A DNA stretch of 64,000 bases. Source: Candidatus Thorarchaeota archaeon (GTDB lineage Archaea > Asgardarchaeota > Thorarchaeia > Thorarchaeales > Thorarchaeaceae). Below are positions 43,901-46,900 of the stretch, one piece after another. The stretch is from the NCBI GenBank assembly GCA_016933575.1, contig JAFGAR010000064.1, forward strand, positions 116,902-180,901, written 5' to 3'. The notes beneath the pieces are model-generated. The model did not search any database, had not been told where the DNA came from, and saw only the letters and a list, made by a program, of their open reading frames with translations. Numbering within the stretch: the first letter of the stretch is position 1; every line of letters starts with the position of its first letter. Position numbers and translations under genes: made by a program.

Positions 43901-46900
43901 GGCCCAATGACGATAGACGCCACTGGTTGGATTTGCGACATATTCCACACCTCCCTGCAACCAGATTGGAATACGCGTTTCGGATCCTACGTAGACCATA
44001 TCCCAAACGTTTGTTCCAACTGTGAAGAAGTCATCCTGAGCAGAGTCCCACACTAGGTCGTATTCTTCACTTGCTCCATTGAAATCAAAGGCATAGAACT
44101 TGCCTACTACATCTGCGATGATCAACCTGTTGGGTTCATTTGGTGGCCCAAAGAGGTTGAATTCCTGTGGTAATGGACCAATAGCCACAGTGAGTGCTGT
44201 GGTAATCTGGTTATAGACCTGCATTAGTTTAATGGAATCTATCAAATAGAGCGCACCATTGAACACACTGATATTGAGATACCTGAACCAGTCCCATTGC
44301 CGATTTCCAAGGGCATCATCCACGTCGATATAGAGATAGTTCATGAATGTCAACATTCTAGCACTACTGATATCCTCAAAGTCCGTGGCTGACTGACCCA
44401 CCCCGATCTTGATGTTGTTCTTGCTTACAGGTGAAGCGAACCTGATTGCAATGTCCCATGCAGCACTTGCACTACCAGTACCTTCCTCATCCTTACCAAA
44501 GTCGATGACAGCAGTGGCATTGGGTGCCATATCAGCTCGGAAGTAGGAGTAGTGACCATCTGATGCATTGGCGAGACCTGTGTTGTATGGATAGCACTCT
44601 GCATCAGGGTCAAACAGACCAGCACCAATGTAGGTGTATGCAATAGGCTCTGGAATCTCAGTGCCATTCGACAAGAAGAAGGTGACATTGTTGGCACTCA
44701 CGATAGAGTCTGCCCAGAAGTCAAGTCTCCAAGGAGCCTCTTCCGCCGTCTGCCAAGCCTCCCACGGGCGGTATATCTTCTTGTAGTCATATCGCTGGAG
44801 TCCTTCATCCCAGTTCAGGACGAAGACACCCTGTCCCTGTGCAACAAGGGCAATCTCCTCTCCTGGAGTACCATCCAACTCACCAATCTCCATGTCCATA
44901 ATCGGGCGCCAGGTATAGTTCTGACTTGTCCAGACAAGCTTGTAGTGGTTATCGTTGATGAGTGGGAAGGGCTCTCCATTGATCATGATATGGACACCAT
45001 CATTTTCGAAGACATATACACGTCCCTCACGAGTGCCTGCAATAATCTCTGGAAGCCCGTTGAAGTTTGTATCACCATACGCGATTGTGTATATCTTTCC
45101 GTCAATGGTATCTCCAGATGTCCATACCTGTCGGAAGGATATCCAGTGTTCTTCAGCAAAGGGATAGCCTGAATGGTCATCATACTCAAAGCACCGGACT
45201 TTGCCATCCCAACCTCCCACTATAATGTCCTCTCGATAGTCCTTATCAGCATCATAGATCTTCACATCGAAGGCTCTGAAGCTATAGGGACTTGTCCAGA
45301 CATGGTCGAACATATTCTCAGTATTTGTCACCGGATCATAGATGTGCCGCTGCTCAAAGAGGTAGACAAAGCCATCTGCGCTTGCAGCCGCAACTTCGAG
45401 GAAGTCGTTCAGATCGGTATCGCCCCACGCAAGGGAAAGGACATCTGCACGAAGAATACTGTCCCCAGAGTCCCAGACCTTATCGAAGTTGCCTGTTTCG
45501 GTATTAAGCCTCCAGATGTGCACCTCGTTATCATAGAGGTATCCTCCACCTAAGGCAAGAAAGCCTGTCGGTTCATGATATGCGATGGCATGAATGGCTG
45601 CCTTCGTCTTCCATGGTTCGAAGATCGTCTTGTAGTTGTTCTCCTTGTTCTGCAAAACTAATCCGATATCCTCGTCCGAAGGTATTCCAGGTTCTGTGTC
45701 CTCGCCAAGTAGATTGAGGACGTCGTTCGGAAAGTTGTCAAGATCAATGTCCTGCAGACCATCTATGTCGAGCGTATTGTTCCTGTTTCCAAGGTCTGCA
45801 ATGACCGGTGCTGTTGGGATTGCGCTGAACAGGGTTACACCCATTATGAAGATAACAAGTAGTCCGAATAGGGCAGTCATCTTGCCCTTAGAACTTCCTC
45901 CCTTCGATGTCTTCTTCTTGGAGGCTGTCTTTGCTTTCTCTTCGCTGGCGGAAGACTTTGCTGGTTTTTCCTCAGTCTCTACAGCATCTCCCGGACTATC
46001 ATCGTCCTTCTTCTTCTTCACTTTCTTCTCGGTTCCCTCCGGAGGTTTCTTTGATGGTCTAATCTTGTAGTAGAGCTTGCTCCAGAAGCCACGTTTGTAG
46101 CCAACAAAGCCAACGATAAGGACGCTAGCCACCGCAGCGCCTGCAAGTCCCAAAAGCAACCACGGGAAGGGTGTGGTTCCTGGGTTGACTATGAACCATA
46201 TCACTGCGCCATGCACGACACCAGTAGCATTACGTGCATAGACCTCGAGAGTGATGTTACCGGTTGGCCACGAATGTCCACTGCTTGACCATAGTCCCGA
46301 AGCACTGTTGTACGTGAGGTACATGTCAGAGGACCAGTCAGTTCCATTGTTGTAGCGGAACCATACATCTTGGAAGGGTGTGAAGTTCGCAACCATCACC
46401 TGTGAGTCCTGGTAGACCTGTTCAGTAGCTGTGGGGAGCAGAATCCTCAGGGTCGACCGACCACGGGCTATTGCAAGTGCCAGCTCAAAATCATGTTCTG
46501 AGGTGAAGGTCAATGGGTCAAGGCCCAGAGCTATCTCAAGTCCATCCGAATACCCATCCTCATCAGTATCCATCTTGGCTGGGTCTGTGCCATAGATGTA
46601 GTATTCACTGCCATCAAGTAGACCGTCCAGGTCACTATCCGGATTCATGATTCCGCCGCCGAAGGTCCCCTGTAGTCCTATATTAAACTCGAGACCGTCG
46701 GGAAGTCCATCAAAATCAGTATCAAACTCGTAGGTGTCGGCTATACCATCGTTATCGCTGTCTTGGTCCATGGGATCACTGCCGTAGAAGTAGACCTCAG
46801 CTCCATCAGGCAGGAAATCATTGTCCGAGTCCGGGTCTAACGCATTGGTCTCATAGGTGGCAGACAGCACCGGACGTTCCGGCATCGGTAAGTCTGCGGT

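Follow-up and report, generated by a model that had tools for sequence, protein, structure and literature searches.

In a 64,000-nucleotide (nt) stretch of DNA from a Candidatus Thorarchaeota archaeon (assembly GCA_016933575.1, contig JAFGAR010000064.1; the whole stretch is called the window here), translation showed a single uninterrupted open reading frame (ORF) at 37958–52468 on the minus strand, encoding 4,836 amino acids (aa) plus a stop. This giant ORF is very likely a real and inherited fusion, in frame, of two Asgard genes that form a conserved pair with coupled translation and are here called A (half A, aa 1–2196) and B (half B, aa 2197–4836). Our high confidence applies to that explanation as a whole, including the membrane topology described below and a slight lean toward cleavage between the halves. 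Gene fusion is a known kind of event, found here in an uncharacterised family with a clear mechanism and independent recurrences. All features of the ORF given below lie on the minus strand.

Genes A and B in Split Relatives

The original prediction held that two ancestral type-I membrane protein genes had been fused in frame, and proposed looking for orthologs split into two ORFs at this point. The halves of the giant ORF are indeed adjacent separate genes in most relatives, with a transmembrane segment (TM) and basic tail closing the upstream gene and a signal peptide opening the downstream gene. A homologue search seeded on aa 1950–2700 returned two fused proteins, the one encoded in the window and P0003, a 4,826-aa protein of another sample with 79% identity to it. 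It also returned many proteins of ~2,660–2,690 aa, a length that matches just the C-terminal half (P0004–P0016, stand-alone B). The source names of the nearest homologues were mostly "Candidatus Thorarchaeota" and in some cases "Lokiarchaeota". A scan of 1.84 billion representatives yielded ~100 stand-alone B-type proteins, several stand-alone A-type C-termini, and one further fused protein (P0028); stand-alone A was represented by at least 15 full-length clusters. Adjacent split A/B matches were found in 9 of the 61 related genomes searched, and in every contig inspected genes A and B were adjacent, either abutting or overlapping.

The gene A product (~2,160–2,206 aa) opens with a signal peptide, continues with helical and beta-rich domains and then Ca-binding repeats of the TSP3 type, and closes with a TM and a basic tail, which ends in K-G-G-x-stop and has the same character as the corresponding stretch of the window's protein. 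In the gene B product (~2,650 aa, with a range of 2,550–3,400 aa among B-type proteins), a signal peptide of its own precedes several FG-GAP-type beta-propellers, and a TM and short tail follow them. B-type signal peptides begin exactly where an internal hydrophobic segment of the window's protein aligns. The N-terminus of stand-alone P0005, for instance, reads M-K-H-K-L-L-T-I-V...P-S-A-P-V-F-A/D (slashes mark predicted cleavage sites) and is an ordinary signal peptide. The homology of the internal segment to the N-terminal signal peptide of B, and the TM and basic tail at the end of A, directly support the fusion of two type-I membrane protein genes.

The frame itself was checked for a missed stop or frameshift, as the original prediction had advised, and neither was present. 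A Logan re-assembly of the likely source run gave a 77.9-kb contig identical to the window over 45300–46700, at depth 12 and with no insertion or deletion. P0003, which comes from a different run and an independent sample, was fused at the same point. Among the 61 related genomes, the fused frame was also uninterrupted in six species of the same genus (G003, G008, G010, G014, G022, and G027; loci L006–L011), with open frames of up to 4,901 aa. A second DNA study (X2) gave only fragments of about 95% likeness, none spanning 45864–46427. Among RNA runs, none was found to contain the stretch, and two metatranscriptomes of the source study gave no match.

A smaller paralogous pair, A'/B', was adjacent in G032–G035, G047, and G002 (A' ~1,550–1,600 aa, B' ~1,900–1,950 aa, 37–42% identity to the window), and the copy in the window's own genome (G000:C97:5-820) was cut by a contig end. 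A 3,898-aa frame in G005:C12 was considered as a fused paralogue and rejected for its different architecture.

Anatomy of the Junction

The split junction reads GGAGGTGCA-TAA-A-ATG or close variants with an [AG]TG start in L003, L004, L014, L015, and L016; L001 has TAG-A-TTG, and stop and start overlap in L019. In the split forms, the Shine-Dalgarno sequence (SD; GGAGG(T) or GGAGGTG) lies inside the last codons of A (K-G-G-A), while B is in the +1 frame and starts ~8 nt past the SD. As read from the sequence, this arrangement is one of termination-reinitiation coupling. A prfB-type programmed +1 frameshift in the split relatives was also considered and rejected: the SD and stop are present, yet the last sense codon (GCA, ACT, or AAG) is unable to re-pair in +1. 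The lack of a slippery codon, with a start codon 1 nt after the stop, fits coupling rather than frameshifting.

The same region of the window is in one frame and reads GGAGGA-AGT-TCT-AAG-GGC-AAG-ATG. The ATG (Met2197, 45880–45878) lies exactly 16 nt downstream of a GGGAGG at 45902–45897, a relic of the SD of ancestral gene B that now encodes K-G-G. In the alignment, Met2197 falls on the Ile in the ancestral M-(K)-I-L-T-L-F and not on the old start codon. Deletion sizes were counted over the interval between the GGAGG and a conserved Phe codon in the signal peptide; MAFFT placed gaps poorly on the short junction DNA. By this count the window lacks 4 nt relative to L001, the split relative closest to it, and 10 nt relative to L012 (each a 3n+1 number), and in the fused clade of six species 16 nt are missing compared with split L003, its sister. 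A small deletion of 3n+1 nt removed the stop of A and the start of B, joining the cytoplasmic tail of A to the signal peptide of B.

The general pattern is that of Rosetta-stone fusions of adjacent coupled genes, in which most genomes have the parts as separate neighboring genes and a few have a single ORF, with the stop and start lost at an SD-stop-start junction. The case described here differs from these in that both partners are giant type-I membrane proteins, so that topological compatibility is required and an internal signal peptide is left behind, and in that the same junction was fused two or three times.

With respect to annotation, the 4,800–4,900-aa "single" proteins and the pairs of 2,200 + 2,650 aa in Asgard genomes are the same system, and gene B has been given a wrong start in some annotations. 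In the database P0004, for example, begins with M-A-S-M-A-V-V... (L001:2697-2745, L002:3841-3889), which is probably too late: a TTG that follows the upstream stop by 1 nt would yield M-R-S-K-I-L-S-L-F..., and this is a normal signal peptide at the SD spacing of the family. P0020 is apparently truncated in the same manner.

Predicted Topology

Kyte-Doolittle hydropathy in 19-residue windows gave six peaks above 1.7 along the 4,836-aa protein. Four of these correspond to the N-terminal signal (aa 14–32), TM1 (2104–2122, 2.54), the internal segment (2199–2217, 2.56), and the C-terminal anchor (4805–4823); two further peaks lie within the N-terminal half (337–355, 1.76; 1108–1126, 2.26). The stop-transfer helix that had been proposed near aa 2103 corresponds to TM1 (aa 2103–2124, 46097–46162), whose counterpart by homology is the TM at the C-terminus of stand-alone A proteins and which would be the anchor of ancestral protein A. 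The ~70 aa of tail-like sequence described after it proved to be a Lys-rich stretch of 72 aa with 21 Lys (aa 2125–2196, 45881–46096), the former C-terminal tail of protein A and now a predicted cytoplasmic loop. The Sec-like signal with a V-x-A site claimed to begin at aa 2197 (ATG 45880) is the internal signal, or TM2 (aa 2197–2225, 45794–45880), whose homology to stand-alone B signal peptides marks it as what was once the signal peptide at the N-terminus of protein B. It ends P-T-A-P-V-I-A/D-L-G, with a predicted signal-peptidase site between A2225 and D2226 (nt 45794/45793) by the −3/−1 rule. The GGGAGG, put at about 16 nt upstream of the ATG, lies at precisely that distance, and every coordinate and residue number of the original prediction was correct.

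Charges around the three segments were markedly uneven. Counting K+R in the 15 aa before and after each segment gave 0/5 for TM1, 6/1 for TM2 (all six before it being Lys), and 0/5 for TM3. The loop carries 22 K+R against 11 D+E and has no N-glycosylation sequon, whereas all 43 N-x-S/T sequons fall within the ectodomains, which are strongly acidic (377 D+E vs. 82 K+R in ectodomain A; 371 vs. 126 in ectodomain B). This distribution fits an out-in-out-in topology, in which ectodomain A would be outside, the loop inside, ectodomain B outside, and the tail inside. TM1 would stop transfer, and the old signal peptide would then re-engage Sec with its N-terminus inside, restarting export of the B ectodomain, so that both acidic ectodomains would remain outside. 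Because the tail is predicted to be cytoplasmic and is strongly basic, the fusion would be topologically harmless. The predicted topology is the exact sum of the two ancestral topologies, and a 3n+1 deletion at this point would for that reason be tolerated and could recur.

The family offers a clean natural experiment in membrane-protein evolution, with the same giant type-I pair split and coupled, or fused, in close relatives. An N-terminal signal peptide would have been taken over as an internal start-transfer sequence with the location of either ectodomain unchanged.

Two side observations concern the tail. A juxtamembrane motif, [KR]-x-G-[FW]-W-[SG]-[KR]-[LIV], is conserved just after TM1 (46070–46096, aa 2125–2133) and is also present in L001, L004, and P0003, the tails being otherwise unconserved. 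In the split relative L004 (9700–10035; GCA_014730275.1, WJIL01000009.1) the A tail is not Lys-rich, and a match to the helix-hairpin-helix family HHH_5 (PF14520) lies between G-W-W-S-R and E-G-G-A-stop. Together with the histone-tail-like K/S/T tails found elsewhere, this match hints that the tail may bind nucleic acids or some other partner.

Fate of the Internal Signal Peptide

Whether the internal segment is still cut was judged by the −3/−1 rule alone, and we lean slightly toward signal peptidase I still cutting at V-I-A/D in the window's protein. The c-region is canonical, with a Pro to break the helix and V, A, and D at −3, −1, and +1, respectively, and P-T-A-P-V-I-A/D nearly matches P-S-A-P-V-F-A/D, the sequence in P0005, a distant stand-alone protein. 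A free N-terminus is not known to be required by signal peptidase I, as viral polyproteins and Bradyrhizobium japonicum FbcH illustrate. Cleavage would give A with an extra membrane hairpin and an unchanged mature B, at a fixed ratio of 1:1.

Several observations weigh against cleavage. The fused sister P0003 has I-M-T-P-S-P where the window has V-I-A/D, and the clade of six species reads P-M-[NR]-G at the cleavage position, so the −3/−1 motif is kept in neither. A textbook site is also absent from several stand-alone B proteins, and nowhere in the family is cleavage clearly conserved. With 21 residues in both the window and P0003, the h-region is long for a cleaved signal; it has 22 residues in the six species compared with 18 in their split sister.

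These points favor the alternative that the protein is an uncleaved three-pass giant, which differs from the preferred explanation in the final step only. The internal segment would be a permanent TM2, and the two ectodomains would stay joined by a cytoplasmic Lys-rich loop that may bind partners. Longer h-regions are characteristic of signal anchors (PMC2120157). Length does not separate fused from split forms here, since most split relatives have h-regions of 17–18 residues but split P0017 and P0018 have 20–21. Lengthening of the h-region as a sign of conversion to a TM helix was dropped, the automatic run-length measure being noisy and the trend, by eye, true of the six species only. Given these data and the canonical site kept in the window, an uncleaved protein is a real possibility, albeit a somewhat doubtful one.

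Cleavage, if it occurs, would resemble that of known precursors. Bradyrhizobium japonicum FbcH, a cytochrome b-c1 precursor, was reportedly described by Thony-Meyer et al. in ~1989–1991 as a polyprotein processed by signal peptidase. FbcH and the viral glycoprotein precursors (bunyavirus Gn/Gc, flavivirus prM/E) share with the window's protein a TM, a cytoplasmic stretch, an internal signal with a −3/−1 site, and a second exported domain, and hence the potential for two membrane proteins at 1:1 from a single translation. They differ in that the host here is an archaeon, the halves are ~2,200 and 2,640 aa, no sequence relationship exists, and cleavage is only predicted. For the bunyavirus precursor, an internal Gc signal has been described (PMC5113920).

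We tentatively put forward, with nearly even weight on either side, that the window encodes a polyprotein that is cellular and archaeal. With a cut by signal peptidase I between A2225 and D2226, one translation would give two giant surface proteins at 1:1, the N-terminal product keeping the spent signal as a second helix, and this design would have evolved repeatedly from the coupled pair. We know of no signal-peptidase-processed polyprotein in archaea.

Recurrence of the Fusion

In a maximum-likelihood (ML) tree of the 445 aa after the junction, the window and P0003 fell inside split lineages (L001, then L012; support 100/99), and the six species were placed beside split L003 (100/99), which forces at least two changes. 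Three changes were forced by a B tree of 35 rows with P0028 included, and three also by a tree built on the 253 aa preceding TM1. On both the A and B trees the fused forms occupied three separate places, namely the window with P0003, the six species, and the lone contig P0028; the fused clades were strongly supported, and each had a split sister. These trees indicate that fusion arose independently at least twice and probably three times. The third fusion (P0028/L035) rests on one metagenomic contig, which counts against it.

The opposite history would be one ancient fusion followed by many fissions. In its favor, K-G-G-S-S stands just before the hydrophobic segment in both main fused clades, and all these genomes are placed in one genus. 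This history would require at least eight independent exact fissions, each rebuilding the SD-stop-1 nt-start arrangement found in distant outgroups. Since the outgroups share the split arrangement, repeated fusion is by far the more parsimonious. The junctions also differ, as the window keeps K-G-K-M of the n-region (junction peptide K-G-G-S-S-K-G-K-M, against G-G-S-P-K-G-K-M in P0003) whereas the six species have deleted the n-region fully, and the A and B trees agree with each other. A single ancient fusion is, in our judgment, quite unlikely.

Within the six species, pN/pS was 0.035 for the propeller, 0.16 for the internal signal, and 0.26 for TM1, at a pS of ~0.5 (0.54). The internal segment is under purifying selection in this clade.

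These data also bear on internal initiation, which the original prediction had raised as an option and according to which translation starting at the ATG at 45880, guided by the GGGAGG, would still supply half B as a separate product. GGAGG and ATG are both present in the window, and the split relatives start B in this way. The spacing is 16 nt, though, compared with 8 nt in the split relatives, and 11 of the 14 real ORF starts in the window with an upstream GGAGG have it at 6–11 nt. Met2197 takes the place of an ancestral Ile rather than a start codon, as noted above, and the GGGAGG is a relic. The SD has decayed in five of the six fused species, and the n-region and start codon of B are deleted in this clade, yet B is under strong purifying selection. 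With the SD decayed, the start codon gone, and B still selected, B must be made within the fusion in this clade, and the internal segment is needed. Initiation at Met2197 is thus unlikely, and separate synthesis of half B in the window very much so.

The weakest alternative is an artefact in which a sequencing or assembly error removed a stop or shifted the frame between two ordinary genes; although the source is a metagenome-assembled genome (3.47 Mb, 215 contigs, 85.5% complete) and the junction is purine-rich and of low complexity, the identical sequence from an independent assembler, the very similar junction peptide of P0003 in an independent sample, and a difference from the split relatives that is a 4- to 10-nt rearrangement and not a 1-nt homopolymer slip make this explanation extremely improbable.

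The gene tree conflicted with taxonomy in one respect. The window's pair (G000) grouped with another genus (G031) and with unplaced metagenomic lineages and not with the six fused genomes of its own genus, and G001 and G009, also of that genus, formed a third, split clade. Transfer, hidden paralogy, or a broadly drawn genus are possible reasons.

Domains and Folds

Half A begins with a signal peptide (aa 1–34, 52367–52468) that ends A-W-A/G, a motif also found in stand-alone A proteins. Pfam searches matched TSP3_bac (PF18884) in half A at 41.2 bits (cut-off 25), in four stretches of a Ca-binding repeat region of TSP3 type at ~aa 1150–1990 (46499–49021, boundaries approximate). Matches in the second half were to propeller families related to FG-GAP, namely Beta-prop_CGLA (PF25292; 32.3 bits, cut-off 26.8) and PF14783 (32.5, cut-off 27), while FG-GAP_3 (PF13517) scored 20.6 and stayed under its cut-off of 26.9. 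An AF2 model of aa 2260–2700 showed a beta-propeller with four-stranded blades at ~aa 2290–2565 (44774–45601; pLDDT 70–92), the first propeller of half B. Foldseek with this model matched only generic propellers of the WD40/Sec13 type. Half B ends in TM3 (aa 4801–4823, 38000–38068), a C-terminal anchor followed by a 13-aa basic tail.

Conservation in half A was highest in the TSP3 region (0.66–0.84), and the first propeller was the most conserved part of B (~0.6–0.74). A beta-rich hydrophobic block of half A (49100–49900, aa 860–1160) was also among the most conserved parts, with 73% mean column identity over 15 sequences and many invariant Gly, Phe, and Trp, and had no Pfam match.

The protein invites comparison with integrin alpha-type FG-GAP propellers and thrombospondin type-3 repeats, to which it is linked by the Pfam matches, the propeller model, and the single-pass anchor with a short basic tail. 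The similarity is at the level of repeat or fold only, and the best fold matches are generic WD40/Sec13-type propellers. The comparison gives no support for an integrin-like function or an A-B heterodimer. Literature searches on Asgard TSP3/integrin-type proteins gave nothing usable.

The repeated fusion, universal adjacency, and coupling of the two genes suggest, by Rosetta-stone logic, that A (the TSP3 protein) and B (the propeller protein) act together at the cell surface. A co-fold of A aa 860–1160 against B aa 2260–2700, with alignments given, scored 0.11 against a mark of 0.32; the domains had been guessed from conservation, and the score is uninformative on binding. Cultured Lokiarchaeia have complex surface proteins and no ordered S-layer (PMC9834061), and the A/B pair is a candidate component of such surface proteins.

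Genomic Context

The genes around the giant ORF encode a protease, a DUF116 protein, a major facilitator superfamily (MFS) protein, GH38, and ABC peptide-transport components. The gene directly downstream (36271–37680, minus strand) has CUB and PPC domains, and a caspase-like catalytic dyad was noted in it on first reading. Processing of the giant protein by this neighbor is not supported by synteny, as the gene is not conserved in L001, L003, or L004.

Tandem giant genes in Asgard archaea are also known from the aloposon of Heimdallarchaeum, with the twin giant genes Otus and Ephialtes (PMC8813620). Apart from this likeness, the window has no tRNA in its 64 kb and no MinD/ParA-type gene among the neighbors tested, so that the two are set apart by gene context and not by sequence. 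With neither a tRNA integration site nor the MinD/ParA gene set near the giant gene, identity with an aloposon was rejected.

The rejected 3,898-aa frame in G005 (L036 = G005:C12:28000-47900, frame from nt 4291) encodes an unrelated protein with a signal peptide, TSP3-like matches, and a TM at ~aa 3035, followed by ~860 cytoplasmic residues ending in a zinc-ribbon-like C-x-x-C...C-x-x-C motif.

The base composition of the giant gene also stood out, with a G+C content of 0.44–0.51 (38000–50000) compared with 0.39–0.43 in the flanks, which probably reflects its Asp/Gly-rich repeats rather than a foreign origin.

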